A stretch of 64,000 bases of DNA from a virus (IMGVR_UViG_3300013368_000005:122591-186590), one strand, 5' to 3'. Shown: positions 6,999 to 62,896, counted from the first letter of the stretch. The notes: a model not told the origin generated them from the letters alone. Program-made: numbers and translations.

Positions 6999-9227
6999 AT
7001 GTCTAATAATATAACTTTTGCAGAGGATGTTTCAAAAGCCTCTGATCGTATTGACAACTTAGAACAATGTTTAGCTAAAGGACTATTTATGCCTTTTAAC
7101 AGTTCTACCTCTGGGTCTAGAAACTTGCTATTCTCGACACAGTTAGAACACAAATTACCTCTAATGAGAGGTGAAGTACCATTATTAGGAACAGGATATG
7201 AACCATTATTTGGTGAATATTCATCATCGTTTATTAGAACAGATTCCGAATATGATGTCATAGAAAGGGTAGAAAAATTTGGTCAAATTCCAGGTCATCA
7301 CTATTATTTAATAGTGTTTAATAAAAAGAAACAAGAGTTTGATATGATAGAAAGAAAATCATATGAACACATTACCGAATCGTATGGATATCTATACGAT
7401 AATACAAATATAGATAAATATAAATCAGGTTCATCAATATATGAAGGTGAAGTAATTAGAAAGAGTACTAGTTTTGATGAATTCAATAACAGAAAGGATG
7501 GAGTGAATCTTAATACTGGATATATAAGTTGTGAAAAGACCAAAGAAGACGGTATAATTATATGTGAGAGTGCAAGAAGAAAATTAGCATCTCCACTTAT
7601 AAGAAAAATAAAAATTATACAAAATGATAATGACCTTCCTTTGAATATATATGGAAACGATGAACTATATAAATCATTTCCAGATATAGGTGAAGAAACA
7701 TCTAATAAAATATTATGTGCATTAAGAAGGGAAAAGAAAGAAGAATCTTTATTTTCCTTATCATGTACAAGATTGAAAAATATAATGATGTCAGATGAAA
7801 GATTTATAGCTGAGGGAAAGGTTATAGATATAAATGTATTTTGTAATAATCCTGATAATTTAAATTCAGTATATACATCGCAAATAAAATATTATTATGA
7901 TCAACAACAAGTATTCTTAGAAACTTTTGTAAATGCTACAAAGGAAATTGTAGGTAAATATAAATGTAGCTATGCTTTACAAAAGATGCATTATAATTGT
8001 AAAAAGATTTTGGAAGGCGGGCAATATATCCAAGATAAGCCTTTTAGTAATAATGTAATAGAAATAACTTTATTAGAGGAAAGTTTAGTAAATGTAGGGG
8101 ATAAAATATCTAATAGATATGGAGGTAAAGGAGTTGTATCTTGTATACTTCCAGATCATTTAATGCCTAGAATGGATAATGGACAATATATCGAATTGAT
8201 ATATAATTCATCTACATGTGTAAATAGAGGAAACCCAGGACAATTATATGAAACTTCTATAAATCATATAGGAGGAAGAATAGTAGATTTTGTATCAACT
8301 GGTACTTTAGAATTTGCAGATCAAGTTGAAATGTATCTAGGATTCTTACGTCATCTATCTCCAGATTTATCTGCACATATTGAGAACTCCATGCTACAAT
8401 GGAGTGTAGAAGATCAACGTGTATTTATGGAAGGCGTATTTACTGAAGAAGGTATAGCTGTATCGATGAAACCTATATCTGAAGCTATAGACATAGATAA
8501 ATTAAGATCAATATATAAAGAATTTTCTTTTGCTATGCAAAATAAAATTATTATACCACAAAAAGATTCTATGGGAAATATAAGATATATTCCAGCAAGA
8601 AGAGCTATAACTTGTGGTAAACAATATATTTATAGATTAAAACAATATGCAGAAGAGAAATTCTCAGCAGTTTCTCTATCAGCTACAAATATTAAAAATG
8701 AGAATACGAGAAATGCATCTAAGAAAAATTATAAATCTGCTTATTCTAAAACACCAATAAGATTCGGTGAAATGGAACAAGGAGATTTTGGTCACTTAGG
8801 AATGGAGGTAGTTATTGTTAATCTAATGCTTCATTCTACATCACCACATGGTAGAAGATTGGCAGAAGAATTATTAACAGGAGATCCATTTAGTGTTGAT
8901 ATTAAACTTGATGAAGATTCTAAAAATAGATCTGTTGAAGTTAATAATGCTTTTTTAACAACAATGGGGTTAGAATTAGAATTTGTTAAAGTAAGGAAGG
9001 TACAACAAAGACTTATACAAAAATCATTGGTTACTTTTAAACAACCAACTTCTAATAAGTTAGTACAAGGCGTATGGTTTCCTAAGGAATGGGAAAGATT
9101 AGACCCTGTTGAATTTATAGATGGGTTTAAACATAAAGATACAAGAAAATTCTTGGCATTAAAGTCTATGGTAACATTTGGTAAAAAACTAGATGAGGAG
9201 ACTGGTATGTATAAGAAGGAGGATTAA
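6999..9227 (+). CDS. rpoB: Non-virion RNA polymerase beta subunit, C-terminal half
   Basis: EDGIII, VGDKISNRYGGKGVV, NRGNPGQLYE, GKQYIYRLKQ, RFGEME motifs; start at ATG 6999 after SD. Confidence 0.92.
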   Translation: MSNNITFAEDVSKASDRIDNLEQCLAKGLFMPFNSSTSGSRNLLFSTQLEHKLPLMRGEVPLLGTGYEPLFGEYSSSFIRTDSEYDVIERVEKFGQIPGHHYYLIVFNKKKQEFDMIERKSYEHITESYGYLYDNTNIDKYKSGSSIYEGEVIRKSTSFDEFNNRKDGVNLNTGYISCEKTKEDGIIICESARRKLASPLIRKIKIIQNDNDLPLNIYGNDELYKSFPDIGEETSNKILCALRREKKEESLFSLSCTRLKNIMMSDERFIAEGKVIDINVFCNNPDNLNSVYTSQIKYYYDQQQVFLETFVNATKEIVGKYKCSYALQKMHYNCKKILEGGQYIQDKPFSNNVIEITLLEESLVNVGDKISNRYGGKGVVSCILPDHLMPRMDNGQYIELIYNSSTCVNRGNPGQLYETSINHIGGRIVDFVSTGTLEFADQVEMYLGFLRHLSPDLSAHIENSMLQWSVEDQRVFMEGVFTEEGIAVSMKPISEAIDIDKLRSIYKEFSFAMQNKIIIPQKDSMGNIRYIPARRAITCGKQYIYRLKQYAEEKFSAVSLSATNIKNENTRNASKKNYKSAYSKTPIRFGEMEQGDFGHLGMEVVIVNLMLHSTSPHGRRLAEELLTGDPFSVDIKLDEDSKNRSVEVNNAFLTTMGLELEFVKVRKVQQRLIQKSLVTFKQPTSNKLVQGVWFPKEWERLDPVEFIDGFKHKDTRKFLALKSMVTFGKKLDEETGMYKKED

Positions 9228-9231
9228 TTTT

Positions 9232-11541
9232 ATGAATAGTTTAGAGACTTTATGTTATATCGTAGATAATTTACTTAAAAGTAATCTACAAGTGTTAACT
9301 GAAGAAAATATTAAACTAATAAATGAAATAACTGGTGCTGTGTTAAAGTTAACACAGCATTCAGATTATGATATTCAATGTATGGATAAGATATTATTCT
9401 TATCGAATATACTATGGGAAAATACGGATAGAAATAAATTGCCTTTAGATGATGGCATATATGATTTATTAATAGAATTATATAGAAAATATAATCCTAA
9501 TTTTCAAGTTGGAGCACCATCTATACAGTTTATAAATACAAATGGCTTAGATGGAGAAAAATTTGAAATGCAACCATTAGTAAGGTTTATAGAACAAGAT
9601 AAACTAGAAGATATGTTATTTGCAAATCAAATAGTTCCTGCAACTAAATATACTAAATTAGATATACTACAACCAATGATTTCATTCGCAGATACTAATT
9701 ATATATCTAAACGTATAGTAAATCAAAAACAATTGAATCCAAAATTGGTTGGAACTTTAGATAAGTGTAAATTCGTTTTAAATGCTCAAGCAATAGATAA
9801 AGGGGTATTTAATGATTCTAATGTCAAAGTTCTTGAAAGAGATTTCTTTCAAAAACATATACAACAAGGAATATTAGATCCTAATAGAATATTTTCAATG
9901 CTTTTAGAACTTAAATTTGATGGTGTATCGGTTTCAGCAAAAGTATCAAATAAAGTACATCAAGCAATGACAAGAGGAGATGCGAATAATGAAGTAGCAG
10001 CAGATATAACTCCTATTCTATATGACTATAAGTTTCCAAGAGCAACAGGAATTATTCCAGAAAATGAATGTTTTGATATGAAATTCGAAGCTATTATGAC
10101 TTATTATGATCTTTATAGATATAATATAGCTAGAGGGAAGAATTATAAAAATTGTAGAACAGCTATAATTAGCGTGTTTGGTTCATCAGATGCAGCTAAA
10201 TATAGGGATTATATTACATTAATGCCTATAACGACATCTTTAGATATTGATAGATTATCAGAAATGGAGTTCTTAGATAACTATTATCAGACTGGAGAAA
10301 GAATAAGGTATGCAGTCATATCTGGAACTTATATAGAAATATTATTTCAGATTAAAAAATTTGTAGAAGAAGCAGAATATATGAGATCATTTATTCCATA
10401 TATGTATGATGGAATAGTTGCATCATATTTAGATGAAGATTTAATAAATACTCTTGGTAGAGAGAATTCTATTAATAAATATTCTATGGCTATTAAATTT
10501 AATCCTTTAAAGAAACAGACTATATTTAGAGGATATACGTATGAAATAGGTCAAGATGGTAGTGTAACTCCGATGATACATTATGATCCAGTAGAATTTT
10601 ATGGTACAATACATCCTAAATCTACAGGTCATTCTTATGAGAGATTTAAAACATTAGGATTAAGAATAGGAGATATCATAGATGTTGAATATGTAAATGA
10701 CGTAATGCCTTATGTAACTAAACCAATAAATACTCATAATGATAATAATCAAAATGCATTAGAAAATTTTATAACCCACTGTCCATATTGCCAATCTCAA
10801 TTAGTTATATCAGAATCTGGAAGATCTGTATATTGTAAGAATATAGAATGTTCAGGTAGGCATCTATCTAGGATAGTGGGCACATTTGATAAATTAGATA
10901 TTAAAGATTTCTCTGAAGGGCAATTGAAGAAAATAAATAAATATACATTAACAGAATTACTTCAATTGAAATTAGAAGATGTAGAATTTTTGGGAGATCT
11001 TACAAGTACCAAATTTATACAATCTATGAATGAATTATATCATAGAGAGATTTATGATTTTAATCTAGTTGGTGCCTTAGGGTTTACAAGTGTAGCATCT
11101 AAAACTTGGATGTTAATATTGAATAAAATTTCTTTACAAAAAATGATTAAATTATATTCTGAAGATGTTGATCAATTGAGAAATATAATTGTTTCAATTA
11201 AAGGTATAGGTCCTATTACAGCAGATACAATTGTTAATGAATTTGAATTCTTTATGAATGATTTAATAACTATATGTACATTTCCAAATCTCATAATCAC
11301 TGAGGGAATTAAGTTAGGAAAGAAGATAAGATTTACAGGATTTAGAGATAAAGAGTTAGTAACTAAGTTAGCTTCCCTGGGATATGATATAGGTGAAGGT
11401 TCAGTAACAAAAGATACGGATATATTGTTAATTCCTGTATCAACGTATAGTAGTCCAAAAACTAAAAAGGCTGCTAGTTATGGTGTAAATATTGTTCCAA
11501 TAGATGAATTTAGAGCTGATATGGAACAGTATTTAGCGTAA
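9232..11541 (+). CDS. ligA: NAD-dependent DNA ligase
   Basis: ELKFDG adenylation motif, TRGD, YDGIV, AIKF, OB fold, Cys4 zinc finger, HhH (IKGIGP), BRCT; start at ATG 9232 after SD GGAGG. Confidence 0.92.
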   Translation: MNSLETLCYIVDNLLKSNLQVLTEENIKLINEITGAVLKLTQHSDYDIQCMDKILFLSNILWENTDRNKLPLDDGIYDLLIELYRKYNPNFQVGAPSIQFINTNGLDGEKFEMQPLVRFIEQDKLEDMLFANQIVPATKYTKLDILQPMISFADTNYISKRIVNQKQLNPKLVGTLDKCKFVLNAQAIDKGVFNDSNVKVLERDFFQKHIQQGILDPNRIFSMLLELKFDGVSVSAKVSNKVHQAMTRGDANNEVAADITPILYDYKFPRATGIIPENECFDMKFEAIMTYYDLYRYNIARGKNYKNCRTAIISVFGSSDAAKYRDYITLMPITTSLDIDRLSEMEFLDNYYQTGERIRYAVISGTYIEILFQIKKFVEEAEYMRSFIPYMYDGIVASYLDEDLINTLGRENSINKYSMAIKFNPLKKQTIFRGYTYEIGQDGSVTPMIHYDPVEFYGTIHPKSTGHSYERFKTLGLRIGDIIDVEYVNDVMPYVTKPINTHNDNNQNALENFITHCPYCQSQLVISESGRSVYCKNIECSGRHLSRIVGTFDKLDIKDFSEGQLKKINKYTLTELLQLKLEDVEFLGDLTSTKFIQSMNELYHREIYDFNLVGALGFTSVASKTWMLILNKISLQKMIKLYSEDVDQLRNIIVSIKGIGPITADTIVNEFEFFMNDLITICTFPNLIITEGIKLGKKIRFTGFRDKELVTKLASLGYDIGEGSVTKDTDILLIPVSTYSSPKTKKAASYGVNIVPIDEFRADMEQYLA

Positions 11542-11630: not shown

Positions 11631-11677
11631 AAGATGTAATAAATAAAAACTTTTTAATTTAAGGGAGGATGTTTTTA

Positions 11678-12274
11678 ATGAACACAAATTTAAAAGAGAG
11701 TACAATAGCAATCGATTACCAACAAGAGGTTAACAATCAAGGATATCTTTGGGACCCAGCAGATACTTTTAAAGTATTTGATTCAGTGATATTAGGAATA
11801 ACAGATTACTTAGCATTAGCTAAATCTAAAAAACAATCAACAGCAGTGGCTATTAATGATTTAAAAGGCAATTTATTATTTGCTGGAATAGTTGCTTACC
11901 ATGAAAACGAAAATGAAGAAATGCCAGGCAACTGGTCTTATGAATTTACATTTGATCCAGAAGATATCAAGGATGCAAAAGTAGTTAATTCAACTGATGG
12001 ACAAATTACTAGATTTGTTCAAACTGCAGCTTCAAATCAATATAATATGTATTTCGGAAATCCAACAATGATTCAAGTTACATTAGAGACTTTCGCAAAT
12101 ACTTTAAAAAGATGGTTAGATCAAAATGCTAGAGAAGGCGAAGAAGTATCAGTAATTGAAGAAGGATTCTTTGTAGCTTCAGCAGTAGTAGAAAATGGTG
12201 AGAAAGTATTTTCCGTAGTACCAGATGGTGCTATGAAAAAGATAATCAAAGATGATGCTGCTATAGAGAAATAA
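11678..12274 (+). CDS. Hypothetical acidic protein, possibly with a tandem HU/IHF-like fold
   Basis: SD GGGAGG; C-half TLETFANTLKRWL...GEEVSVIEEGFF...VVPDGAMKKIIK has an HU-like pattern. Confidence 0.55.
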   Translation: MNTNLKESTIAIDYQQEVNNQGYLWDPADTFKVFDSVILGITDYLALAKSKKQSTAVAINDLKGNLLFAGIVAYHENENEEMPGNWSYEFTFDPEDIKDAKVVNSTDGQITRFVQTAASNQYNMYFGNPTMIQVTLETFANTLKRWLDQNAREGEEVSVIEEGFFVASAVVENGEKVFSVVPDGAMKKIIKDDAAIEK

Positions 12275-12346: not shown

Positions 12347-12985
12347 ATGGCTATAGTAAGAAAAGGTAAAGTGTTAGGAAAGATGTATGATGTGATAACT
12401 CCTGAAGAATATTCACAGGAACCTGATATATATAATAATAACTTTACAGCTATTCAAAAAGACAATATATTATACCCAATAAGCAAAACAAGTGCTAAAC
12501 CAGGGTTCTTTGTAAAGAACCAAATTGTATCATTTTTTATCGACCCACCTGAGGAAGAAAGAGAACAGTATTCAGCAGATACAGTTATTGACTTTACTCA
12601 AGTAAGCAATATAAAAGAGATGATTGATAAATCCACATCTTTAGAGGATATAGAAAGAAAGATATTATGTACACCAGATAATATCTATGTTCCTTATATG
12701 GATTCTAAAGATGCACCAGAAGTTAGGGGATTAAAAGAAGCTATCGAAGCTAAACATATAGATTTAGATAAATATGAAGATAGATTCGATGGTAACTATA
12801 ATAATGATAGAAGATTACTTAATAAGAATAATATATCATTAGGTAAATATAGAAAAATATCTGATGCTTTAGATATAAAGGTAACACTAATTTTAGAAGA
12901 TAAGCATCCAAATGTACCTAATCCAATGGGTAAAACAATAACAGTAGAATTAACATCTGGAGGTGATGACTCTAGTGATGAATAA
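12347..12985 (+). CDS. Hypothetical protein with possible C-terminal Cro/C1-type HTH
   Basis: RLLNKNNISLGKYRKISDALDIKVTLIL resembles the end of an Xre HTH; overlaps the RNAP beta-N start. Confidence 0.55.
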   Translation: MAIVRKGKVLGKMYDVITPEEYSQEPDIYNNNFTAIQKDNILYPISKTSAKPGFFVKNQIVSFFIDPPEEEREQYSADTVIDFTQVSNIKEMIDKSTSLEDIERKILCTPDNIYVPYMDSKDAPEVRGLKEAIEAKHIDLDKYEDRFDGNYNNDRRLLNKNNISLGKYRKISDALDIKVTLILEDKHPNVPNPMGKTITVELTSGGDDSSDE

Positions 12986-14699
12986 TATATCACAATATCA
13001 AATAATTAAACAATATAATGATACTCATAGAGAACCATTTAATAATGAATTATTTGTAAGGGATGAAAAAGATATAATCGAATGCCTTCAAAAAGTTATA
13101 CTATCTTGTCAGAGAAATCATTACTTTACATTGAGAGTAGAAAGTTTTAAGATAATAGATAATTATGAAGAAATGATGGCTATACTCGCAAGGAATGAGG
13201 AAGAAGGACTTAAGAATAAAAATAAGAAGAAGGTAAATCAGTATGAATATGTAAACTTAAAAGATACTGATATGGTTCTAATGATAGTCACCTATTATAT
13301 AGAAGCTAAAGGGAAATCACAATATCTTGATGTATATATATTAATACCTAAAATTGTAGATAAATATTACTTTAGAATATATGGTAATTTATATTGTGCT
13401 AGTTTGCAAGTTGTAGATGCTAGTACTTATAATAACAATTATTCTAGTAATGCAAAAAAACAGGTAGTAACAGAAAAGACGACTTTCCAACCTATAAGGA
13501 TATATAGAAATCTGGCTTTACTTACAACGGTAGATGGCGAGGATTTAAAGACAGTTTACTATACATCGCGTATGTTTAATAAGTCATTTTGTGCGTTTAA
13601 ATATATCTTAGCAAGATATGGATTGTACGGAACTATAAACTTTACAGGAATAACATGTATATCTATATTAGATAAAATACCAGATAATAAGGATATGCAT
13701 AATTTATATGTATTCGAAAAGGAAGGTATTTATATATCTATTCCTAAAGAAATATTTGATAATGATTATACAACACAATCTTTAATATTAACTTTATGGA
13801 GTTCTATCCATAAAGATACAAAATATCAAGATTTATTTACACAAGTATATTGGTTAAAATCATTAGGTGGAGAGTTTAATACATTTACACCAGAAAAAGG
13901 ATATGATTTACTAAAATCATTAGAAAATATTTATGATATAATCACTAAGGAAGATTTACACTTACCAGAAGATGTAAAGAAAGATGTATACGGTGTTTTA
14001 TTTTGGTTAATTAGAGAATTTGGTAATCTTAGAAATAAAGATAACCTAGATATTTCTACTAAGAAAGTAAGATGTGCAGAATATATAGCGTCTTTATATG
14101 CTATGAAAATGGCACAAGGTATATATAGACTATCAGATAAACGTACTAATGTATCTATTGAAAGTATTAGGAAAGTTATACTTATAAAACCTACTTTCTT
14201 AATAGAATCTATATCAAGATGTAACTTGGTTAACTATAGAAATTTAGTTAATGACTTGGATGCTTTGACAGCATTAAAGTATACTTATAAGGGTATATCA
14301 GGTATAGGAGAGAAAGGAAATAATTCTGTACCTAAAGCATATAGAAGTATTCATGTGTCACATTTGGGAAGAGTAGATGTAAACTCATCATCTAAATCAG
14401 ACCCAGGTATGTCTGGTCTTATATGTCCATTCACAAAATTATATAATGGTTCATTCTCTGAATTTGAAGAACCAAATACATGGGATGAACAGTTTAGTAG
14501 TTTAATGGATAATTATAAAAAAACAGTTGGCTTAAAAGAATTGATAACATTTAAGAAGAATATATTAGGAGAACAAAATTTAGAAGAGGATGAAAAATTT
14601 GTTGATAGTTGTATAGATAATATGCAAACTTTAATAAATCCAGTCCGCTTTGTTGAAAACACAGCACAATATGTTGTAGAAGATTCTGTAAGTATATAA
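12963..14699 (+). CDS. rpoB: Non-virion RNA polymerase beta subunit, N-terminal half (true start probably 12975 or 12978)
   Basis: YFRIYGNLY...LQ; RSIHVSHLGRVDVNSSSKSDPGMSG matches RpoB [23 protein letters not shown]. Confidence 0.85.
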   Translation: MMTLVMNNISQYQIIKQYNDTHREPFNNELFVRDEKDIIECLQKVILSCQRNHYFTLRVESFKIIDNYEEMMAILARNEEEGLKNKNKKKVNQYEYVNLKDTDMVLMIVTYYIEAKGKSQYLDVYILIPKIVDKYYFRIYGNLYCASLQVVDASTYNNNYSSNAKKQVVTEKTTFQPIRIYRNLALLTTVDGEDLKTVYYTSRMFNKSFCAFKYILARYGLYGTINFTGITCISILDKIPDNKDMHNLYVFEKEGIYISIPKEIFDNDYTTQSLILTLWSSIHKDTKYQDLFTQVYWLKSLGGEFNTFTPEKGYDLLKSLENIYDIITKEDLHLPEDVKKDVYGVLFWLIREFGNLRNKDNLDISTKKVRCAEYIASLYAMKMAQGIYRLSDKRTNVSIESIRKVILIKPTFLIESISRCNLVNYRNLVNDLDALTALKYTYKGISGIGEKGNNSVPKAYRSIHVSHLGRVDVNSSSKSDPGMSGLICPFTKLYNGSFSEFEEPNTWDEQFSSLMDNYKKTVGLKELITFKKNILGEQNLEEDEKFVDSCIDNMQTLINPVRFVENTAQYVVEDSVSI

Positions 14700-14711: not shown

Positions 14712-14939
14712 TTGATTACTATGGAATACTTTTTATTCTCAGCAAGTCAATTAAAGAAACAAAAAGAAATTGCCGATACATTAGGAAAAACATATTCTCC
14801 AGGAACCGTATTAGTTGGTGGTCAATATAAACAATTTACTGAAAAAGTTACAGACTTAAAGAAGGCAAAATTTTCAGATTACATTATTGTGACTCAAGGT
14901 CCTAAAGGTACTATAAAGTATATAGGGGGCTATAGATAA
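14712..14939 (+). CDS. Small hypothetical protein
   Basis: SD AAGGAGG; coupled to the next gene. Confidence 0.65.
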   Translation: MITMEYFLFSASQLKKQKEIADTLGKTYSPGTVLVGGQYKQFTEKVTDLKKAKFSDYIIVTQGPKGTIKYIGGYR

Positions 14940-15265
14940 TGAAACCACTCGTTACTTTTAAAAATAAAAAAGAATTTAAATGTTTTAATTGTGGTGGAAC
15001 AATAGTAAGAAAAATATCTGAAACTAATAATGTATCTATAGATTCCGAAGGTCATCCTTCGGAATTTGATACATTATATGATGAGTATTATATATGTTCT
15101 AGCTGTGGAGATGATTTAACAGAGTTTGTCAGGAGAGTTAATAATCATTTTTACTTATCAACTAGGGGTTATGATATTCTAGTATCGGATTTAATAGAAA
15201 AAAGAATAGCAGATAATAATATAAATCCGTTTGGACATTATGGAAAGGATGAAGAAAATGAATAG
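14939..15265 (+). CDS. Zinc-ribbon protein
   Basis: CFNC...CSSC; N-terminal MKPLVTF. Confidence 0.7.
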   Translation: MKPLVTFKNKKEFKCFNCGGTIVRKISETNNVSIDSEGHPSEFDTLYDEYYICSSCGDDLTEFVRRVNNHFYLSTRGYDILVSDLIEKRIADNNINPFGHYGKDEENE

Positions 15266-15904: not shown

Positions 15905-16201
15905 ATGCAAAAAATGATTGAATTTAAGAGACCAGATTATTGTATACACTGTGAAACAGAACGTGCAATAGAGGGTTATGATAAATTTGGAAAACCTATA
16001 AATTATACTTATTTAATAGATCAAAAACAACTTGGTAAAGAAGTAAGTGATAAATTAGATAGAAGAGAAGTTACATTTATGAAGTGCAGAAAATGTAATC
16101 ATGAATTCTTTATAGATTGGAGAACCAAAGATAATATTCCTAAACCCATAAATAGCTTTGTTCCTATAGATTATTTTCTTATATCAAATTATAAATATTA
16201 G
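15905..16201 (+). CDS. Zinc-finger protein
   Basis: CIHC...CRKC; start ATG 15905 after GAGGTG; N-terminal MQKMIEF. Confidence 0.7.
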   Translation: MQKMIEFKRPDYCIHCETERAIEGYDKFGKPINYTYLIDQKQLGKEVSDKLDRREVTFMKCRKCNHEFFIDWRTKDNIPKPINSFVPIDYFLISNYKY

Positions 16202-20768: not shown

Positions 20769-21725
20769 CTAATATTCTGCTAATCTATTATCATTTATTA
20801 CTATTAATGGATAAGTAATATCTAAGTTAGTATTCCTTGCAATACCATTTCTTTTATCGATAGATAAATCATCTATAAACATAGAATCTGGTTTAGTTAC
20901 ATTAGGAACACTCTCTCCTGTAGTTACATCCATTACATCAAACCATCTTTGACCTGTAGAACCATCGTATACTACTACAGTCTTTATATTACTGTCTTGT
21001 TCTAATCTCATCATATTTTGAGCTGGTGACATGTTTTGAGCATAATTTGCATAAGGATCTTCTTGGGCTATACCAGTTCTAATTATATTAGATGCAGAAA
21101 TAGGACTTGTAAAATCTGCTACATTCATTGGTATAGATGGTCCATTATAAGTTCCTGATGGTGTATTAATATATGCTTGATATAAGTCCATAATTCTCTT
21201 ATCATCATCAACTTTATCTTCAGACATTTTGAGGTCTTTAATTCTTTTCATGTCCAAGTTATGACAATCTGTAATAGTTTTATTTAACTCTCTGATTGCT
21301 GTAACTTTTGTTCCTATTAGAGTACTAGCAGTACTGGTAAGCATAGCAATATAATCATATTTCTTTTTTAATGTTTTAGAACCTTTAATCAAATCTAATT
21401 CAGTTTTGATATCATTCTGAAAAACATCTATTTGAGCTACTGAATTTCTAAGTAAATTATTCGTTTCTGAATAACTTTCTAAATATGGTTGATTAGATTG
21501 GTATAAAGGTAAATCGGAATCATCTTGATTTGCTAATATTATATCGTTTCCATCACTTAACCTCTTAGTTGATACTGACTTACCTTTCTTTTTCTTCTTT
21601 GTAGATAGGTCCATATCTGAACCTATCAAATCTAACGGAATAGGCTCTGCCTCTGTTGTAAAGAAATCAAAGTTTACTCCACTAGAACCCCCTTTTTCTT
21701 CTTTAAAAGTAACCATTTTCTTCAT
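20769..21725 (-). CDS. Hypothetical coiled-coil protein with N-terminal MKKMVTF motif
   Basis: SD AAGGAGG; AACA-N6-TA at 21746-21757. Confidence 0.7.
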   Translation of the reverse strand: MKKMVTFKEEKGGSSGVNFDFFTTEAEPIPLDLIGSDMDLSTKKKKKGKSVSTKRLSDGNDIILANQDDSDLPLYQSNQPYLESYSETNNLLRNSVAQIDVFQNDIKTELDLIKGSKTLKKKYDYIAMLTSTASTLIGTKVTAIRELNKTITDCHNLDMKRIKDLKMSEDKVDDDKRIMDLYQAYINTPSGTYNGPSIPMNVADFTSPISASNIIRTGIAQEDPYANYAQNMSPAQNMMRLEQDSNIKTVVVYDGSTGQRWFDVMDVTTGESVPNVTKPDSMFIDDLSIDKRNGIARNTNLDITYPLIVINDNRLAEY

Positions 21726-24058: not shown

Positions 24059-26011
24059 ATGTTGCTAAAAAATTATATAGAAGGGTCAGATTTGACATTA
24101 TTAAATACTTATTATTTATATCCACAAAAGAATGAAGAAACAGGAAAATGGAGTAAAGATTCAATCACTCTGATTTATAAAGATAATGTTACGGGACAAA
24201 AACATCATGAAACAATACATGAGCCAGATTATGAATTCTATATGGCAAAACCAGAAGAAATGATTGATCATAATATGCTCTTTATAGAAAAAGAGAAAGT
24301 ACAAAAAATATCATCACCATATAGTAAATTAGAAAAAACAATAGCAGAAGTTACCGACAATCTACCATTTTATTATGATAATATAAAAAATGGTAATAGA
24401 AGAGCAAATCAAAGATTACATGACGATACGAGAATATTTGGTTCTGATAGTAATATAGAAGAGCACTATAGATTTAGATTTGATAATGAATATACAAATA
24501 GCATCATACCTATATCTAAAGCATATTTCGATATAGAAGCAGATACTATTAATATGAAGGGAGATTTCCCAGAGCCAGGAGAGTGTCCAGTAAATGCAGT
24601 AACACTCATTAACGAAGCAACAAATAAAGTTTATGTATTTCTATTAAGAAATCCAAATAATCCTTTAATAGAAGAATTTGAAAAATCTATAAATAATGAT
24701 TTATTTGTAGAATTAAAAGACTTTATAAGAGATTCAGTTGGAGGGTATAAAAAAGAGATAAAATATGGATTAGATAAATTACAATATGAGTTTCTTTTTT
24801 ATGATGAAGAAATAGGTTTATTACAAGAGTTATTTTTAGCAATAAATACATTACAACCAGACTTTATAATGGCATGGAACATGGCATTCGATATGCCATA
24901 TATGATTCAGAGAATTAAAAATTTAGGTTATTCAGCAGAATCTATAATCTGTCATCCAGATTTTGAGGTTAAGGTTTGTAAATATAAAATAGATGAAAAT
25001 GCAGATATATTATCCGAAAGGGGGGATGATGCAACAATTAGTTCTTATACAAAATATATAGATCAATTAATACAATTTGCATCTAGAAGAAAAGGTCAAG
25101 GAGTATTCTCAAACTTTAAATTAGACTCCATAGGAAATCTAACTGTAGGGGTTAAAAAATTAGATTATTCTCATATCACTACTAGTATAGCAAAATTACC
25201 ATATTTAAATTATAAGGTGTTTGTTTTTTATAATATCATAGACGTAATTGTTCAAAAATGTATAGAATCAAAAGTTGGTGATATAGACTATACTTTTAAT
25301 AAATGTCTAATAAATAATACAAGATATAATAAAGCACATAGACAAACTGTATATCTCGTAAATAGAGGAAAAAAAGAGTTTTATACAGATGGGTTTATAA
25401 TGGGAAATAATACAAATAGGAAAAACGCTAAGCCAACAGAAAAATTCCCAGGTGCATTTGTTGCAGACCCAATGAAATTAGATGATTATGCTAAATTAAA
25501 ACGATATGGATTGCCAGTAAACATATTTAATAATTCTGATGACTTTGACTATAAATCACTATATCCAAGTATAATGAGAGAATTTAATATTGCACCTCAT
25601 ACACAAATAGGAAGAATCGATATATTGGATAAGATGTATAACAATGAAGATCCATTTAATAATAAATATTATAATAGAGGTGGAGCATTTATAGAAGATT
25701 TACATTCGGGGGTATTTTTACAATTTGGTCATAGGTGGTTAGGACTAGCACAGTATAGCGATTTATATAAGGATATATTAGAATACTTTACTAAAAGAGC
25801 ATTTAGTGCTAATCCAGTGTTTATGTTTAACGATAAAGGTCAAGTTCCTATGGTTAGATTTAGGCAAGAAGGACAAATGATGAAGATGGTTTCATTTGAT
25901 GAAGGTAAACAAAGAATGGTTTATAAATATTATCAAAAACCAGATTATCAAAATATATATGATAATATAAATAGAAATGGGGTTGCTATAGGTGTTGGTA
26001 CAATTGAATAA
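24059..26011 (+). CDS. Family-B DNA polymerase, N-terminal subunit (3'-5' exonuclease plus motif A)
   Basis: ExoI YFDIEAD, ExoII AWNMAFD, ExoIII YNIID, motif A DFDYKSLYPS; lacks motifs B and C. Confidence 0.9.
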   Translation: MLLKNYIEGSDLTLLNTYYLYPQKNEETGKWSKDSITLIYKDNVTGQKHHETIHEPDYEFYMAKPEEMIDHNMLFIEKEKVQKISSPYSKLEKTIAEVTDNLPFYYDNIKNGNRRANQRLHDDTRIFGSDSNIEEHYRFRFDNEYTNSIIPISKAYFDIEADTINMKGDFPEPGECPVNAVTLINEATNKVYVFLLRNPNNPLIEEFEKSINNDLFVELKDFIRDSVGGYKKEIKYGLDKLQYEFLFYDEEIGLLQELFLAINTLQPDFIMAWNMAFDMPYMIQRIKNLGYSAESIICHPDFEVKVCKYKIDENADILSERGDDATISSYTKYIDQLIQFASRRKGQGVFSNFKLDSIGNLTVGVKKLDYSHITTSIAKLPYLNYKVFVFYNIIDVIVQKCIESKVGDIDYTFNKCLINNTRYNKAHRQTVYLVNRGKKEFYTDGFIMGNNTNRKNAKPTEKFPGAFVADPMKLDDYAKLKRYGLPVNIFNNSDDFDYKSLYPSIMREFNIAPHTQIGRIDILDKMYNNEDPFNNKYYNRGGAFIEDLHSGVFLQFGHRWLGLAQYSDLYKDILEYFTKRAFSANPVFMFNDKGQVPMVRFRQEGQMMKMVSFDEGKQRMVYKYYQKPDYQNIYDNINRNGVAIGVGTIE

Positions 26012-26621
26012 ACAACAATTAAAAGAGTTAATAACCGAAGCAAAAAAAATCAAGTCTGATATAATTTATATCAGACCTGATGGAAATATATATGGTACAG
26101 ATATAAATTTCTTTCATCTAAAATCAAGTACGACATCAATATTGGGTTTTGAATTATGCTATCTGTCTAAAGATATGGATGCTTTTATTAAAAATATAGA
26201 TGATATAGCAGTGGAGAAAATAATTATAAATGGTATAAATATGATAGCAGAAAATGGTGCAGTAGTTCAAGTATTAAATCCATTTTCTATAAATGAAATT
26301 AATAATAAAATTATTAGATTATCATATATGATAAATAATCCAATAATTTATACAAATGAATCATTACAAGAAGATGATGTATTTCAATCTATAATATCTT
26401 TAAAAACGTCGGATGGTTCTACTATATATAAAATTGATTATATTTATATGATGTCTGTATTTAAAACCTTATTACCAATTAATAAAGGAGATAAAGTCTT
26501 ATTAAATATAATTGATATAGGTCAAGAAAGATTTTTATCAAATTTCACTGTAGTAAAAAAGAAAAATGTTATAATAAATATATACTATATTATGAGATAT
26601 TTAAATACATCAAATCGATAA
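25992..26621 (+). CDS. Hypothetical protein overlapping the DNA polymerase gene; candidate sliding clamp
   Basis: GTG start, 209 aa; N-terminal LKELITEAKKIKSDIIYIRPDGNIYGTD resembles a PCNA/gp45-type helix-strand start. Confidence 0.5.
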   Translation: MLVQLNKQQLKELITEAKKIKSDIIYIRPDGNIYGTDINFFHLKSSTTSILGFELCYLSKDMDAFIKNIDDIAVEKIIINGINMIAENGAVVQVLNPFSINEINNKIIRLSYMINNPIIYTNESLQEDDVFQSIISLKTSDGSTIYKIDYIYMMSVFKTLLPINKGDKVLLNIIDIGQERFLSNFTVVKKKNVIINIYYIMRYLNTSNR

Positions 26622-36416: not shown

Positions 36417-36505
36417 TGAAACTTCCCCCTCATCAATCTTGAATTTACTCTATTGTTATCTAACAGATAGATTTTGACATAGAGGTTGTCCTCTATGTCA
36501 ATCTT

Positions 36506-45366: not shown

Positions 45367-46236
45367 TTAATTTATAGTATATTCATTCATAAATGATTTA
45401 ATATCTGCATTAATATTGATAAAATCCCTTTCTATTGTATTATCAGGAATATTTAATTTATTGTATCCATAATTGAATTCAAGTAATAATATTTTTTCAT
45501 TAACAAATGATTCTAGTATAGCTTTCTTTATATTAATATTAAGTATCATTGGTGAATATGGTATTATAGTATAATTCTTTTTAATAAATGTAGTCAATAA
45601 ATTAGATCTTACTTTAGTATCTGTTACTATTAATTGGCTACTTGCAAGTTCATGTATATTTATTGCTGAAGTATTATTATTATAATTATCAAACCATATT
45701 AATCTACATGGATCTTTAGATTTATATTTTATACCAGATAGAATATTTTTAATACTTTTTATTTTCTGAAAATACTCTGGAAGCAAGTTGTACATTTCTG
45801 TTAACTTTGATTTGATAGAATTAAAATCCTGTACTGTATTTTCAAATATATTTACATCAAATATATAATCACTAAACAATCTGTTATACAAAATATAAGA
45901 TAAAATTGTTGTTGTTTTACCTGGATGCTGCCTTATTGCATTAACAAGGCAATTATTACCTTGGTGAAGTGCAGTAAGTAAGTTTATTCTTAAATTATTT
46001 GGAATAAAACTATTTCCTTCATCCAGAGGAATTGGAATATTTAAAACTTTATAATAGAAAAAATCTGCATCTTTTCTACATATATTAATTATAATCTCCT
46101 TTTGTTCCTCGGTTAAATTTGGGTTTGAGCAGTCAACTAGATTATATAAAACATCTAAGTCTTTATGCTCAAATTTAATCCCAAATTCTAAAGCTTGTTT
46201 TTCAAATGTTCGCATAAATGCAATATAATTATTCAT
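45367..46236 (-). CDS. Degenerate terminase-ATPase paralogue without nuclease domain
   Basis: Collinear with the TerL N-half: NPNLTEEQKEIII..C, IRQHPGKT, IWFDNY, YGYNKL; late promoter at 46269-46280. Confidence 0.7.
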   Translation of the reverse strand: MNNYIAFMRTFEKQALEFGIKFEHKDLDVLYNLVDCSNPNLTEEQKEIIINICRKDADFFYYKVLNIPIPLDEGNSFIPNNLRINLLTALHQGNNCLVNAIRQHPGKTTTILSYILYNRLFSDYIFDVNIFENTVQDFNSIKSKLTEMYNLLPEYFQKIKSIKNILSGIKYKSKDPCRLIWFDNYNNNTSAINIHELASSQLIVTDTKVRSNLLTTFIKKNYTIIPYSPMILNINIKKAILESFVNEKILLLEFNYGYNKLNIPDNTIERDFININADIKSFMNEYTIN

Positions 46237-46295
46237 AATTTATTATCCCCCTTGGATTTTTTTATATTTATATGAATGTTTTGCATTTATTTAAT

Positions 46296-46589
46296 TTATA
46301 CAAGTCTCTCCAATACAGTGATTCTTATATGTCTATATTCTAAAACTGTCATTTTTATATTTATTACATCCATCATAGCAGAAGAGGAAATTAATGTGAG
46401 CTTATCATAATTCTTATTAATGAGCTTATCAATTTCCTCCAATGCTTCCCTACTATTTTTTGCTATCTCCTTTAACTTAACATCTGAAGAATTTATAATT
46501 AATTTATTATGCTCATTTATTTCTGTCTTTGTTAATTCAATTACTTCATCTACTATTTTTTCTAATTCTTGAATTTCTTTAACCATCAT
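46296..46589 (-). CDS. Small helical hypothetical protein
   Basis: SD GGAGG. Confidence 0.6.
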   Translation of the reverse strand: MMVKEIQELEKIVDEVIELTKTEINEHNKLIINSSDVKLKEIAKNSREALEEIDKLINKNYDKLTLISSSAMMDVINIKMTVLEYRHIRITVLERLV

Positions 46590-57929: not shown

Positions 57930-60062
57930 TTACAATTTTAATATATTTGTATAATTATTATTATCATTTCCTCTATAAATATTAAGTTGTTCTATTGGGA
58001 AATGTTTTGCATTATCATTTATAATAGTTTTATAATCTATAAATTCTGTTAGCCATTTTGGAATTTCTACATTCTTTGGAACTGCAACACAATCGATTCC
58101 AGATGCATAATCTTTTTGTTTCATTAATTCAGTTAATTTTTGAAACAATTCTGGTTCTTCTATTTCAAAATGTGTAATTTTTTTAGGGTTTATAATTACT
58201 TTAAGCAAATCTATACCATTTCTAGATGATAAATCTATTGCTTCTAAGCCTTCATCTTTTATAGCATTCCAAACTATTGAAGCTTTTATACCTTGAATTC
58301 TCATAGGATTTTCATAGTTATTTATAGATTTTATTGTAACTGGTTTATAAAATTTCTTTTCACCACTCTCAAGAGATCGATATATTTCATTTTCGAATTT
58401 AGCTAATTCTTTTATAAGTCTTAATTCATCTATTTCGTCACAAGTTAATACTTCTTCGTACATAATCTCTTGTAATCTCTCTTGGGTTCTCTTATTTAGA
58501 TTTGATTTACCCATCATAAGACCTTTTATGTCTTGTTGTTTACCTTTAGGAACTATATTTCCTTCTTGAAGTTCTTGTATACTTGCATAATTTTTTTTTA
58601 CATCCATTAATAATATTCTTTTGAATAAAAATTCATTTTTCATTATTAATAAACATTTTTTATTTTTATCATAAGAATTAGAATGCATAGTGAATTTTTC
58701 CATATAATCATTTATCACATTGCCTATGCAATACGCTAATATATTTATTATAGAGTATCTTACCCCTTCTTGTGGGATAATTTTAATTGGATTAATAGCT
58801 TTACTCATTTGAACAATCTCATCTTGGTAGAAATCGTAATCTACTGGTTCATCTAAAATCTCAACCATTTTTTGACCATCTATTAAATCCCCAAATTCAT
58901 CTTTTTCTAGAAATCCGACCATAGGAACCATTTCATGCTTGATTTTTAAATCTATATTTTGTATTTTTTCAAATACAAATCTATACCATGCATCTAAAGA
59001 TATTATACAACTATCAGTATCTGTTATTATACAAACTTTCCTAATCATATTATCATATCTATCCAATCTATCAATAATTTGATGAGAGTAGTATACATAT
59101 TCCATTATAATATCATTAAGTTCGTCTAGTTCTACACTTATTTCTTTCGGTGGTTTATTAGGGTCTAGAAATGGAGATTCTAATTTACTAAGTATATATA
59201 TTAAAGCTCTTTCCATAGATTTGTTTTCCATAAATGAAAATAAGTTATTTTTATAATATAATCTATTTAAATCTTGTTGGGTTAAATTACATATTATTCC
59301 CCAAACTATATCCATATCTTCCTCTGATGGAATATAATTAAATCCACTTGTAGTCATTAATTTATAGAAGCATTCTGCATGAGTTATATTTTCATCTAGT
59401 ATAAGTCTATCGTCATATTTTCTATGCTCCTGACATACATTATCTATATAAGTAACTATTTCATCTAATGAACCGAAAAGTACGTTATTCGCTAAGAACA
59501 TTTCAAATTGTAAACCAGCCGCTGATATACAAGCTCTTCCTTGAGTAGTAACAGAAGCTGCAACATGAAGATTATAGTATAAACAACTATACATTCCGCA
59601 TGCACCATAGAATCCATTGGCATCAATTTTTGCTAGTAATTGCAACAAATTGAATTTTTCAAATTCCTCAGAACCTTTTGGATACTTAAACATTTCTTTC
59701 TTATAAATATTTCTACCTTCCATAAATGTTTCAAGGAGTTTAGCTATTGGGTTTGGAGCTTCAGCATGTTTCTTAAACATGACTCCATAAGGCGTAATAA
59801 TTGGTTCTCTTGTCATAACATATTCCGCTAAATGCAATACATCTATATTAATCTGCTTATGTTTATAATTATTATCTATTACTGCTTTTCCATTTTTCAT
59901 TCTTGAAATAATAGAATAATCTAAAGCATCTATTAATTCATCATTTGATAATGTTGGAAATGAAAGTTTTAATAACCTCATTGCCACCTTTTTATATTCG
60001 TTTACAATCTTCATTTCAAGTATTTCTTTTTGTGAATCATTAAATTTATTAAATGAACTCAT
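57930..60062 (-). CDS. Family-B DNA polymerase, C-terminal subunit (motifs B and C)
   Basis: Motif B KIDANGFYG, VTTQGR, motif C TDTDS, KKNY, IKG. Confidence 0.9.
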   Translation of the reverse strand: MSSFNKFNDSQKEILEMKIVNEYKKVAMRLLKLSFPTLSNDELIDALDYSIISRMKNGKAVIDNNYKHKQINIDVLHLAEYVMTREPIITPYGVMFKKHAEAPNPIAKLLETFMEGRNIYKKEMFKYPKGSEEFEKFNLLQLLAKIDANGFYGACGMYSCLYYNLHVAASVTTQGRACISAAGLQFEMFLANNVLFGSLDEIVTYIDNVCQEHRKYDDRLILDENITHAECFYKLMTTSGFNYIPSEEDMDIVWGIICNLTQQDLNRLYYKNNLFSFMENKSMERALIYILSKLESPFLDPNKPPKEISVELDELNDIIMEYVYYSHQIIDRLDRYDNMIRKVCIITDTDSCIISLDAWYRFVFEKIQNIDLKIKHEMVPMVGFLEKDEFGDLIDGQKMVEILDEPVDYDFYQDEIVQMSKAINPIKIIPQEGVRYSIINILAYCIGNVINDYMEKFTMHSNSYDKNKKCLLIMKNEFLFKRILLMDVKKNYASIQELQEGNIVPKGKQQDIKGLMMGKSNLNKRTQERLQEIMYEEVLTCDEIDELRLIKELAKFENEIYRSLESGEKKFYKPVTIKSINNYENPMRIQGIKASIVWNAIKDEGLEAIDLSSRNGIDLLKVIINPKKITHFEIEEPELFQKLTELMKQKDYASGIDCVAVPKNVEIPKWLTEFIDYKTIINDNAKHFPIEQLNIYRGNDNNNYTNILKL

Positions 60063-60677: not shown

Positions 60678-60746
60678 AATTATATATTATATATGTAATA
60701 AAGAAAGGAGTTATTAGGAATTTAAATGTATTAAAACATTTAATTA
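60678..60746 (+). promoter_or_regulatory. Tandem early (60678-60691) and late (60735-60746) promoters of RNAP beta'-C
   Basis: AATTATATATTATA then AACATTTAATTA. Confidence 0.7.
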
Positions 60747-60772
60747 AATACGTAATTTAGGGAGGATTAATT

Positions 60773-62896
60773 ATGTTATATTTAGAGAATTATGGACCAT
60801 ATGCCGAATTGGTTCAAAAAAGGAGAATGGTAATAGATGTAAATTCTATTACCATTAATAACTGGCAAATGCATTTTGACTCAGTATTAAATATAATGAG
60901 AGATGCAATAGAAACAGACTTAATGAATAATGCATTTATCACTATTCAATTCGCACCTGGAATTGATTGTGAATTAACTGTACCAGATTATTGGTTTAAT
61001 ATACTAATGTGGTATTTATTAGTAAGAACTAATAAAAGAATAGAACCTAGACATATATTCTTTAATGAAAATATGACTAGAAGAGATATAAAGAATTATG
61101 TTGATGAATTCTTTATAGAAGAAAATAGAACTTCTTATGAAAATATAGAATTAAATAATATAATAGATGATTGCTTAACTGAATTTAACCGTATAGATGA
61201 ATTTGCATTCTTCTTGGCAAATACAATAAATCTTGAAGATTTTATAGACTTAATGAATAATGTCCCAAGATTTGATCAATTAATACATTCAGATTTATCA
61301 AATGTTCCATTAGATGAAGTTAAATCAGAAGGTTTAAAACTTACCGATGAAGCAATAAGTATTATAAAGAATTCAGAACACTGTCTATCAAATTTCTTTA
61401 GAGCAGGGGAAGGCGTTAACAAGAAACAGTTTAAAGAATTTGCAATAAATACGGGAACTAAACCAGATGGTAACGGCGGTGCATTCCCTGTAGTAGTAAA
61501 TACAAATTTATTAACAGGTGGAGCAAATGATACTGCTTCATTCTTAATTGAATCAGCTACAGGTAGAACAGCACAAACAATAGTTGAAGGAAACGTTGGA
61601 CCTTCAGGATATTTCGCTAGATTGTTAGGGTTAAATGCTACAGATACATTTATAAATCCTAATCCAAATTATATTTGTAATACAAAAAACTTTCAGATTA
61701 TAGAGATTAAAAACGATTTAATTTTAAATAAATTTGAAAATAGATATTATAGATTGAACCCTAATGGAGTTGAATATAAACTTACTAAAAAAGATAGACA
61801 TTTAATAGGAAAAACACTATATTTCCGTTCACCTATGACATGTGCATCAATGGCTGAAGGTCATGGAATATGCTACAGATGTTATGGGGATTTAGCTCAC
61901 ACTAATAAAGACATTGCTATAGGAAAGATGTCTTCAGAGATACTAGCATCTGTATTTACTCAGATGATGTTATCCGCTAAACACTTATTAGAATCTTCTA
62001 TTAAATCAATGACATGGAATAAAGAATTCGGAGATTTATTTGAAGTTGAATTTAACTTTGTAAAATTAAATAGCGATTTTGATTTTTCTGGATATAAAAT
62101 ATTAATGGATGCTGATAGTATAACTCCAGATAGCGAAGATGAAGATCAATTACAATGTGATTTTAATGAACATGTAACTTCATTTGATGTATTATTTCCT
62201 AATGGTGTAATAGTAAATATGCATACTGCTGAATTAGATTTAATATATTTAACACCAGAAATTACAGAATATATTAGAGAAACAGCAACTAAATTAGATG
62301 GAAAAATAACTATAGATCTAGGAAAATTATCAGAGTTTGATGTTCCGTTATTCGCATTAAAGATTCAAAATGATGATATGTCAAAAGCACTTGAAAGGGT
62401 TAAAAATAAATTTGATAAAGTTGATACTATAAAGCAAGAAGATAGAAATTCATTATTGCAATCATTAATGGAAGTAGTAATAGATATAGGTTTAGATATA
62501 TTATCTGTACATTGTGAAGTATTATTAGCAATGCAGTTGAGAAATGTTGATGATATATTAGATTTACCACAATGGCAATATCCAGATGAACCTTATAAAA
62601 TGTTGACATTAAGGCAATCTCTTGATAAACATCCATCGGTTACTATATCTTTAAGTTTTGAGAAAATAGGAAAATTATTATACAACCCATTAACATTCAG
62701 AAAGAATAAAGCATCATTTATGGATTTATTCTTCATGGAACAACCTCAAATGTATTTAGCTAATAAAGCAGAGATTCAGAAATCTAAAGCAGATGATTTT
62801 GGAATGAAGAAAATGATTTATTTTAAAGAACCAGAAGAATTAAACACTGTAGATATAGATGATTTGGATGATTTAGATATAGTAGAAGAAATATAA
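60773..62896 (+). CDS. rpoC: Non-virion RNA polymerase beta' subunit, C-terminal half
   Basis: Bridge helix GRTAQ...SGYFARLL, Zn site RSPMTC...ICYRCYG, trigger loop TQMMLSAKH, VHCEVLL, SLSFE. Confidence 0.92.
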   Translation: MLYLENYGPYAELVQKRRMVIDVNSITINNWQMHFDSVLNIMRDAIETDLMNNAFITIQFAPGIDCELTVPDYWFNILMWYLLVRTNKRIEPRHIFFNENMTRRDIKNYVDEFFIEENRTSYENIELNNIIDDCLTEFNRIDEFAFFLANTINLEDFIDLMNNVPRFDQLIHSDLSNVPLDEVKSEGLKLTDEAISIIKNSEHCLSNFFRAGEGVNKKQFKEFAINTGTKPDGNGGAFPVVVNTNLLTGGANDTASFLIESATGRTAQTIVEGNVGPSGYFARLLGLNATDTFINPNPNYICNTKNFQIIEIKNDLILNKFENRYYRLNPNGVEYKLTKKDRHLIGKTLYFRSPMTCASMAEGHGICYRCYGDLAHTNKDIAIGKMSSEILASVFTQMMLSAKHLLESSIKSMTWNKEFGDLFEVEFNFVKLNSDFDFSGYKILMDADSITPDSEDEDQLQCDFNEHVTSFDVLFPNGVIVNMHTAELDLIYLTPEITEYIRETATKLDGKITIDLGKLSEFDVPLFALKIQNDDMSKALERVKNKFDKVDTIKQEDRNSLLQSLMEVVIDIGLDILSVHCEVLLAMQLRNVDDILDLPQWQYPDEPYKMLTLRQSLDKHPSVTISLSFEKIGKLLYNPLTFRKNKASFMDLFFMEQPQMYLANKAEIQKSKADDFGMKKMIYFKEPEELNTVDIDDLDDLDIVEEI

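Follow-up and report, generated by a model that had tools for sequence, protein, structure and literature searches.

We analyzed a 64,000-nucleotide stretch of viral DNA (IMGVR_UViG_3300013368_000005, positions 122591-186590; hereafter the window), in which a short hydrophobic peptide of the form [KPS]-[ML]-[VI]-x-F recurs in otherwise unrelated DNA- and RNA-acting enzymes. An initial annotation had proposed that this peptide is a tag through which a phage recruits its replication and transcription proteins to one hub protein. The window is the final 64 kb of a 186,590-bp IMG/VR contig (G000; 26.6% G+C), which CheckV rates as about 75% complete and labels a provirus. The B-family DNA polymerase of G000, which is split into two genes, shares 31% identity with its counterpart in Bacillus phage AR9/PBS1 and 26-29% with the polymerases of Staphylococcus jumbo phages, and the beta-C fragment of its RNA polymerase (RNAP) matches the solved AR9 non-virion RNAP chain 7S00_C with an E value of 1.3e-88. 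A blastn search of the polymerase region against phages gave no match. Because of the polymerase identities and the 7S00_C match, the G000 phage is, judged from its sequence, an uncultured, distant AR9-like jumbo phage. Coordinates below are those of the window unless given as contig positions.

The exonuclease half of the split polymerase, PolB-N (24059-26011, plus strand; Pfam DNA_pol_B_exo1; 31% identical to AR9 gp131), ends in a tail with three tandem tags, VPMVRF, MKMVSF and QRMVYK, spaced about 12 residues apart (25844-25927, plus strand). AR9 gp131 stops at the point matching PolB-N residue 568, and AR9 has no counterpart of the PolB-N tail, which runs from about residue 580. The stop codon of PolB-N is overlapped by 20 nucleotides by the start of a 209-residue clamp-fold protein (25992-26621, plus strand), which is the proposed receptor of the tags. 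The palm/fingers/thumb half of the polymerase, PolB-C (57930-60062, minus strand; Pfam divDNApol and DNA_pol_B), has two tags, VPMVGF and QKMVEI (58857-58928, minus strand), in an insertion of about 70 residues that follows motif C (DTDS) and is absent in AR9. The NAD-dependent, LigA-type DNA ligase (9193-11541, plus strand), recognized by its Pfam ligase adenylation, OB and Zn domains, holds QPLVRF (9571-9588, plus strand) in an insertion absent in AR9 and, by translation and alignment, QPMISF (9670-9687, plus strand) as a second insertion tag.

Three core subunits of the RNAP were also tagged, and all three belong to the non-virion enzyme. The alignment of the beta-C subunit (6978-9227, plus strand) with 7S00_C ends at residue 671, and the tail beyond this core (residues 672-749) contains KSLVTF (9021-9038, plus strand) and KSMVTF (9162-9179, plus strand). 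The beta-N subunit (12963-14699, plus strand) is 29% identical to AR9_83356-84846, a protein 82 residues shorter, and has two weaker tags, KELITF and NPVRF, in its tail (14535-14651, plus strand). The beta'-C subunit (60773-62896, plus strand) is 29% identical to AR9_127805-129700, which ends at the point matching beta'-C residue 651, and its tail carries KKMIYF (62807-62824, plus strand). Three smaller proteins bear the tag at the N terminus: a 108-residue zinc-ribbon protein (MKPLVTF, 14939-14959, plus strand) for which BLAST found no orthologue in relatives, a 104-residue zinc-ribbon protein (MQKMIEF, 15905-15925, plus strand; 98 residues when counted from this methionine) and a 318-residue protein (MKKMVTF, 21705-21725, minus strand) transcribed divergently from PolB-N. 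All 11 stretches listed in the initial annotation translated exactly as written there. The tags lie in lineage-specific tails and insertions outside the AR9-conserved cores and the 7S00 core.

Motif counts in the window were made on a non-overlapping set of open reading frames (ORFs; 19.7 k residues), with 2000 within-protein shuffles as background. The pattern [KPS][ML][VI].F was observed 12 times versus 2.65 +/- 1.6 in the shuffles, none of which (0/2000) reached 12, and the enrichment that had been anticipated over shuffled sequence was thus confirmed. The narrower pattern [KP]M[VI].F was observed 7 times versus 0.36 expected. Since the pattern had been picked after looking at the window, a hold-out test was made on the remaining 122.6 kb of the contig, in which xPM[VI]xF occurred at five sites versus about 0.2 expected. 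Four of the five were within 10 residues of a protein end: the C-end of a DnaB-like helicase (position 601 of 610), the N-end of SbcD (position 3) and the N-ends of two unknown proteins of 273 and 136 residues (positions 8 and 9). The fifth was at position 42 of a 157-residue protein. In G000, M[VI]x[FY] was also found at the C-ends of a Dam methyltransferase, a 270-residue protein and a 61-residue protein. When 17,410 three-residue gapped patterns were scanned without bias, MV.F ranked first in the terminal 18 residues (8 termini versus 5 interior sites, p 2e-7). The flanks of the tags were more polar than the background (0.64 versus 0.56, P 2e-4). The codons of the tag copies differ synonymously, which indicates a peptide-level repeat, and an origin of the tags from a DNA repeat was rejected for the same reason.

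The recurrence could still be accidental, or could come from a structural strand that is frequent in an AT-rich proteome with much lysine, isoleucine and phenylalanine. The pattern had indeed been defined post hoc, and among the 22 genome-wide regular-expression hits about four are demonstrably chance or structural: the N-end of a thymidylate-kinase-like protein, an unconserved site in the portal-vertex homologue at 26681-28924, two sites in a 451-residue ORF, and a virion-protein strand conserved in all lineages. However, the shuffles, the hold-out sequence, the unbiased pattern scan and the cross-genome matrix described below all reject such an origin, and the position of the tags in lineage-specific additions outside conserved cores also argues against it, so that we regard it as extremely improbable. 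The thymidylate-kinase-like ORF (contig 35817-36626) begins MKGKLIVFEGLD, which is the usual first strand of that enzyme type with its P-loop lead-in and hence a false positive of the regular expression.

We then compared G000 with its relatives. Four IMG/VR genomes rated as complete (G001, G003, G004 and G005; 91-100%), with 39-53% protein identity, were reached via the helicase and PolB-N. Three further contigs from unrelated samples (L105, L106 and L107 are among the lineage labels) were found as members of the family of the clamp-fold protein, giving eight lineages in all. The G000 motif was unenriched in G001, G003, G004 and G005. Instead, each genome had its own motif: [KP]L[FM]xKI in G001, [DE]LI[DN]PL in G003, KP[LF][FY][KR][IVY] in G004, and a hydrophobic residue followed by xV[VI]xR[VE] in G005. 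When the five motifs were counted in the five genomes, enrichment was found on the diagonal only; off the diagonal the counts were mostly at or below expectation, with one about twice it. On the diagonal, the observed and expected numbers (all sites/terminal sites) were 22/9 and 7.5/1.1 for G000, 17/10 and 4.2/0.6 for G001, 12/11 and 0.7/0.1 for G003, 10/2 and 1.5/0.2 for G004, and 24/11 and 13.5/2.0 for G005. The unbiased terminal scan independently ranked L..PL, I.PL and DPL at the top in G003 and VI.R in G005. The motifs also differ in character, LIDPL being acidic, VVKRV basic and PMVxF aromatic.

The private motifs occupied the same positions in orthologous proteins. In the beta'-C tail, a single alignment column reads GMKKMIYFKE in G000, GLKPLFYKIE in G001, GLINPLITVE in G003, IKKPLYKIV in G004 and KIVAIRRVRE in G005. 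At the first beta-C tag, G004 has NPMYSV and G005 has HVISRV; at the second, they have KPVFSKY and RVINRI, and a split-off beta-C tail piece of G001 bears KPLFRKI. The G001 beta-C gene lies in two pieces about 2 kb apart (contig 218654-220444 and 222434-222865), probably split by an intron or a homing-endonuclease insertion, and its 143-residue C-terminal piece holds both tags. The beta-N tails of the orthologues contain LIPLFHKIE (G001), EVVMRLEG (G005) and ASLFTYNV (G004), and the first ligase tag is matched by RLFEKI (G001), CPLVKL (G004) and LIKVVER (G005). The insertion after DTDS in PolB-C holds NPFKVI and SPFIPL in G004 and EIVKKV and IPVVTRD in G005; PolB-C is shortened or split in G003 and G005. 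Orthologues of the zinc-ribbon protein at 15905 begin MKRLFHKIRE in G001 and MADELINPLL in G003. Positionally homologous tags were also found in orthologues at the helicase C-end, the SbcD N-end, the N-end of the 136-residue protein and the C-end of a 220-residue protein.

The PolB-N tail showed the same replacement in repeated form, with two to three tandem copies of the private motif about 12 residues apart in G000, G001, G004 and G005. The copies are LFHK[FI] three times in G001, VVIRR/KVVRR/QVITR in G005, SPFKKV/KPLFKY in G004 and NLFRE/KPLFVK/RPLFHR in L105. In the three further contigs, the PolB-N tails carry two to three tandem copies of other motifs (KPLFxK, IxPVxF, and a hydrophobic residue followed by xFF), and in two of the three the divergently transcribed neighbor resembling the 318-residue protein starts with the same motif as the PolB-N tail. 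The N-ends of the 318-residue orthologues read DLIDPLEIV (G003), LIQVVTRAE (G005), LIRLMTPI (G001), IQPVTF (L106) and PMAFF (L107). On the other hand, the AR9 orthologues are 50-100 residues shorter and lack the tails, and AR9 has no enriched terminal motif. The AR9 DnaB-like helicase (NC_031039 3583-5268) ends in DSGIPF, which resembles the C-terminal tip DDDIPF of single-stranded DNA-binding protein (SSB). In relatives, the positions of the tag were kept in orthologues, and its sequence was replaced by each lineage's own. Since the same termini and insertions hold a private motif in seven related lineages, which is otherwise hard to explain, the results suggest a common binding partner that co-evolves with the motif. 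The idea that the tag common to replication and transcription proteins is recognized by a single hub thus gained strong comparative support.

One candidate hub would be a host protein, such as the beta clamp DnaN, SSB or a chaperone, with the differences between lineages reflecting different hosts. The tags are short, hydrophobic and often preceded by Q or K, loosely like QL[SD]LF-type motifs, and phage proteins often hijack DnaN. However, the codes are radically different between sister phages, whereas bacterial clamp-binding motifs are conserved across phyla; in addition, none of the tags fits QL[SD]LF, and the phages encode a clamp-fold protein of their own beside the polymerase. We consider a host hub very unlikely.

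The ORF at 25992-26621 had been singled out as a partner candidate, and structure prediction gave it a clamp fold of the gp45/PCNA type. An AlphaFold2 model built from a 103-sequence alignment reached a predicted local distance difference test score (pLDDT) of 96 and a predicted template-modeling score of 0.90; an earlier fold with a 5-sequence alignment had a pLDDT of 43. In a Foldseek search of the PDB with this model, the top matches were all DNA sliding clamps. By VIA-align, the best match was T4 gp45 in complex with a ligase peptide (6drt_A; Z 10.9, 184 of 209 residues aligned, root mean square deviation 4.1), followed by T4 gp45 1czd_A (Z 10.7) and RB69 gp45 1b77_A (Z 10.6), then by PCNA, 9-1-1 and beta clamps; 1czd, 1b77, PCNA and 9-1-1 match over the full length. 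The model has two topologically repeated clamp domains per protomer. Searching BFVD retrieved uncharacterized myovirus proteins of the same family (template-modeling score 0.72-0.78), then annotated phage clamps, and also a 533-residue 'ribonuclease H' of the PhiKZ-like phage RP12. An ESM-atlas feature search had given a weak lead to clamp families (score 0.86), with which the fold later agreed. From the model, the product of 25992-26621 is most likely a sliding clamp of the gp45/PCNA type, with two domains and a strongly diverged sequence.

This protein has no sequence-level link to known clamps. It matched nothing in Pfam or PHROG, and none of 103 family members matched Pfam; the gp45, PCNA and beta-clamp families (PF02916, PF00705 and PF00712) found no match in the genome. 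The clamp-family profile gave only noise against PDB sequences, a word-indexed homologue search returned only the query itself, and tblastn against 50,697 phage records gave no match. An exhaustive profile search collected 599 family representatives at E <= 1e-3. A syntenic counterpart of 173-277 residues was present in all four relatives, and in 8/8 lineages the clamp gene follows PolB-N, overlapping or abutting its end in seven and lying close behind it in the eighth. The clamp is among the fastest-evolving syntenic genes, with 20-31% identity compared with 44-53% for PolB-N, as would be expected of a receptor with shifting specificity. When the clamp, with its 103-row alignment, was co-folded with the C-terminal 35 residues of the helicase, without controls, the score was 0.00, a result that counts neither way.

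The tags may instead be read by another clade-specific phage protein, for example a conserved one of 200-320 residues, or they may act as homotypic stickers that condense a replication factory without any receptor. In this clade, 21 core proteins have no BLAST-level AR9 homologue, several of them encoded inside the tagged gene cluster (11669-12274 and 12347-12985). Nevertheless, nothing positive points to any of these candidates, and only the clamp combines the right fold with genomic linkage. A homotypic sticker would have to change in concert on more than 12 proteins, a more demanding route than the drift of tags that a tolerant pocket still accepts. We therefore judge this pair of explanations to be rather unlikely.

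It had also been proposed that the tag marks the DNA and RNA enzymes of the phage and is absent from virion proteins. The first part held for the polymerase, ligase, helicases, nuclease, methylase and RNAP but not for all DNA enzymes: UvsX, SbcC, Dda helicase, both topoisomerase II subunits, RNase H and ribonucleotide reductase had no tag in any lineage, and nucleotide-metabolism enzymes had none. A superfamily 2 (SF2; XPB-like) helicase, which falls beyond the end of the G000 contig, was tagged in relatives. The second part held, apart from chance or structural matches to the regular expression: terminase, sheath, portal-vertex protein and other virion proteins had no tag in any lineage, and the comparison of 9/16 tagged nucleic-acid enzymes with 0/9 tagged virion proteins gave a Fisher p of 0.008. 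One of these matches, DPLVGF, is the only one in the 747-residue homologue (26681-28924) of AR9 gp127 and the MarsHill 'portal vertex protein' (PHROG virion structural protein); it was rejected as a chance hit in an unconserved stretch, with no replacement by a private motif in relatives. A capsid-targeting signal was rejected, the carriers being non-virion enzymes, and nothing was found in support of a protease site or degron.

The range of carriers bears on whether the tag is an address label, read by a phage import or targeting factor (a gate of the replication compartment, a translocase or a cytoskeleton-linked scaffold) that concentrates replication and transcription proteins at the phage DNA. 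In chimalliviruses, nucleus import by PicA/Imp factors sorts replication and transcription enzymes, including the non-virion RNAP, and depends on the chimallin shell. We know of no linear import signal described for this phage nucleus. The enzyme classes sorted there are similar to those tagged here, but no chimallin shell is recognized in AR9-like phages. A per-chain sorting signal would predict what is seen in the split polymerase and split RNAP, in which each polypeptide has its own tag; tags at N-ends, C-ends or in loops would also suit a label, and lineage-private codes are possible for sorting signals with a dedicated receptor. The phage further encodes a putative tubulin-family protein (3484-4689) and an AAA ATPase with a BCS1_N-like N-terminal part. 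However, no tag is present on UvsX, SbcC, Dda, both topoisomerase II subunits or RNase H, although these too work on the phage DNA, and the three evenly spaced copies in the polymerase tail, together with a clamp gene coupled to it in expression, are better explained by clamp docking. No homologue of a shell or import factor was recognized, with no dedicated family search made, and AR9-like phages are reported to lack chimallin (PMC13282480). An address label is, in our estimate, quite unlikely. Of the hubs that had been put forward (a clamp, an import factor or a scaffold), the clamp gained most, from its fold, its linkage to PolB-N and the parallel with T4, while nucleus import was neither supported nor excluded.

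In phage T4, the peptide LDFLF at the polymerase C-end, a flexible loop insertion in the ligase and the RNAP-associated gp33 bind the hydrophobic pocket of gp45, and the RB69 peptide differs (PMC6212786). The T4 and RB69 clamps, with gp43 (C-end), ligase gp30 (loop), gp33 and gp55 as clients, are like the present protein in their two-domain protomer of about 210-230 residues (Z 10.6-10.9). In both systems one short hydrophobic motif is found on the polymerase end, in an internal ligase insertion and on the transcription machinery, and varies between related phages. Here, as in T4, a gp45-like fold comes together with a private hydrophobic peptide, placed at the polymerase end and inside a ligase insertion, and with a connection to transcription. 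On the strength of these three shared ingredients, we read the tags as putative clamp-docking peptides. In our estimate the probability is roughly 55% that they form a code for clamp docking that includes core subunits of the non-virion RNAP and has the product of 25992-26621 as its receptor.

In the clamp-docking model, x-[KQ]-[PKS]-[ML]-[VI]-x-F-(K) would be the docking tag, gained by at least a dozen DNA-acting proteins in the form of terminal tails or inserted loops. The tagged set comprises PolB-N (three copies), PolB-C (two), the LigA-type ligase, the DnaB-like helicase, the SF2 helicase (in relatives), SbcD, the Dam methyltransferase, the three RNAP core subunits and several small zinc-ribbon and unknown proteins. 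The clamp gene would be translationally coupled to PolB-N, and the hydrophobic residues of the tag would insert into a pocket on the clamp face. Docking would tether the polymerase and so confer processivity, and would bring ligase, nuclease, helicases, methylase and phage RNAP to clamp-loaded, replicating DNA, much in the manner of T4 gp45 and its LDFLF-bearing partners. Tag and receptor would have co-evolved quickly, leaving each lineage with a private code. We infer that the clamp serves as the receptor, that it forms a ring, and that tethering of the RNAP couples late transcription to replication. A more far-reaching proposal, which we consider possible but doubtful, is that the tags form an orthogonal addressing system, in which the whole DNA-transaction proteome, including the catalytic RNAP subunits, is tied to one fast-evolving receptor and the code diversifies so that co-infecting relatives, host decoys and defense proteins cannot plug in.

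The client spectrum, with polymerase, ligase, nuclease and methylase tagged, fits a clamp. On the other hand, several observations weigh against clamp docking. Clamps do not usually have a helicase or several RNAP core subunits among their clients, and when each subunit of a split enzyme bears a tag of its own, a targeting signal is the more typical cause. The tag sequences do not match the known clamp-binding consensuses (the PCNA-interacting protein (PIP) box, QL[SD]LF or LDFLF). For a clamp loader, PF13177 gave sub-threshold P-loop matches in G000 and G001 and none in G003-G005, so that a loader, if present, may be divergent, and the sole AAA protein seen appears by sequence to be BCS1-like and not RFC-like. 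Cultured AR9-like phages have a syntenic ORF of 238-277 residues that is possibly also a clamp, yet they lack the tails, and the co-occurrence of clamp and tags is thus weak evidence. Finally, by analogy with PhiKZ, the product of 25992-26621 could be a non-ring, Rhc-like DNA-binding subunit. When the clamp family was aligned by hhalign with the syntenic 238-277-residue ORFs of AR9, MarsHill, BpSp and phiR1-37, the probability was 0.2%, and HMMER found no relation either.

The system also differs from T4 in several respects. The present clamp has no sequence similarity to gp45 (the Pfam gp45 models miss it), no gp44/62-type loader was found in its genome, the motifs are unrelated to LDFLF, and the split polymerase has five tags. 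By this comparison, what would be new relative to T4 is a wider clientele, with two helicases, SbcD, Dam and zinc-ribbon proteins, a rapid turnover of the code, and tags placed directly on three catalytic subunits of the phage multisubunit RNAP, whereas T4 uses small adaptor proteins.

PhiKZ/AR9-type jumbo phages had been reported to lack a classical sliding clamp (PMC7824862, PMC13648687). In PhiKZ, Rhc is a clamp-derived processivity subunit of the split polymerase that works without a ring and without a peptide code (PMC13648687). Like the present system, it combines a split B-family polymerase and a clamp-fold accessory protein in an RNAP-encoding jumbo lineage thought to be clampless. Rhc is fused to RNase H, lacks ring-forming elements, has a large thumb/palm interface and has no reported peptide motif (PMC13648687); in contrast, the clamp described here is free-standing with two full domains, RNase H has a gene of its own, and the system includes a peptide code. 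The RNase H of G000 (contig 45649-46389; PF00075, E 6e-13) lies far from the polymerase and is untagged. In AR9, a gene annotated as 'RNase H' follows PolB-N.

The PIP box of PCNA clients and the QL[SD]LF peptide of bacterial beta-clamp clients resemble the tags in being short peptides, terminal or in loops, that recur in many clients, among them polymerase, ligase, nucleases and DNA methyltransferase. These peptides dock into one hydrophobic pocket, and their consensus is stable over very long evolutionary distances, whereas at least eight distinct codes were found here within one phage clade.

We found no earlier description of the tag network or the clamp family in the literature searched. 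The findings point to a large unannotated family of gp45-like clamps (599 representative clusters), located directly behind the split polymerase gene wherever the context was examined, and a list of probable clamp clients is now at hand. The tags can serve as a handle to annotate unknown proteins as replisome or transcription partners, to ask whether the phage multisubunit RNAP is attached to replicating DNA in the way known from late transcription in T4, and to study the joint change of an interaction code in a hub and a dozen clients. With at least eight codes in a single clade, and with the receptor gene next to the polymerase tail, hundreds of natural tag/receptor pairs could be harvested from metagenomes. 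If the tags do form an orthogonal addressing system and the clamp reads them, a cellular-type RNAP would be connected in late transcription straight to a sliding clamp, with no adaptor proteins in between; if something other than the clamp reads them, they would represent the first linear signal for sorting proteins to a phage replication compartment.

Several other proteins of the phage were noted. The putative tubulin/FtsZ-family gene at 3484-4689 matches only a PHROG family of unknown function and is untagged. The 384-residue AAA ATPase (contig 74655-75809; PF00004, E 2e-27), whose N-terminal part weakly resembles BCS1_N, has conserved counterparts in G001 and G004 and could be relevant either to a targeting role of the tags or as an odd clamp loader. 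In all lineages, the 136-residue tagged protein (contig 111883-112293) ends in a strongly acidic tail like those of phage SSBs, and it is possibly the SSB of the system. The 318-residue protein (20769-21725, minus strand) had no family match. It and its orthologues, which are always divergent from PolB-N, consist of the N-terminal tag, a variable low-complexity linker and a conserved C-terminal domain of 240 residues, and the protein is a candidate for a missing replisome part, such as a primase or loader.

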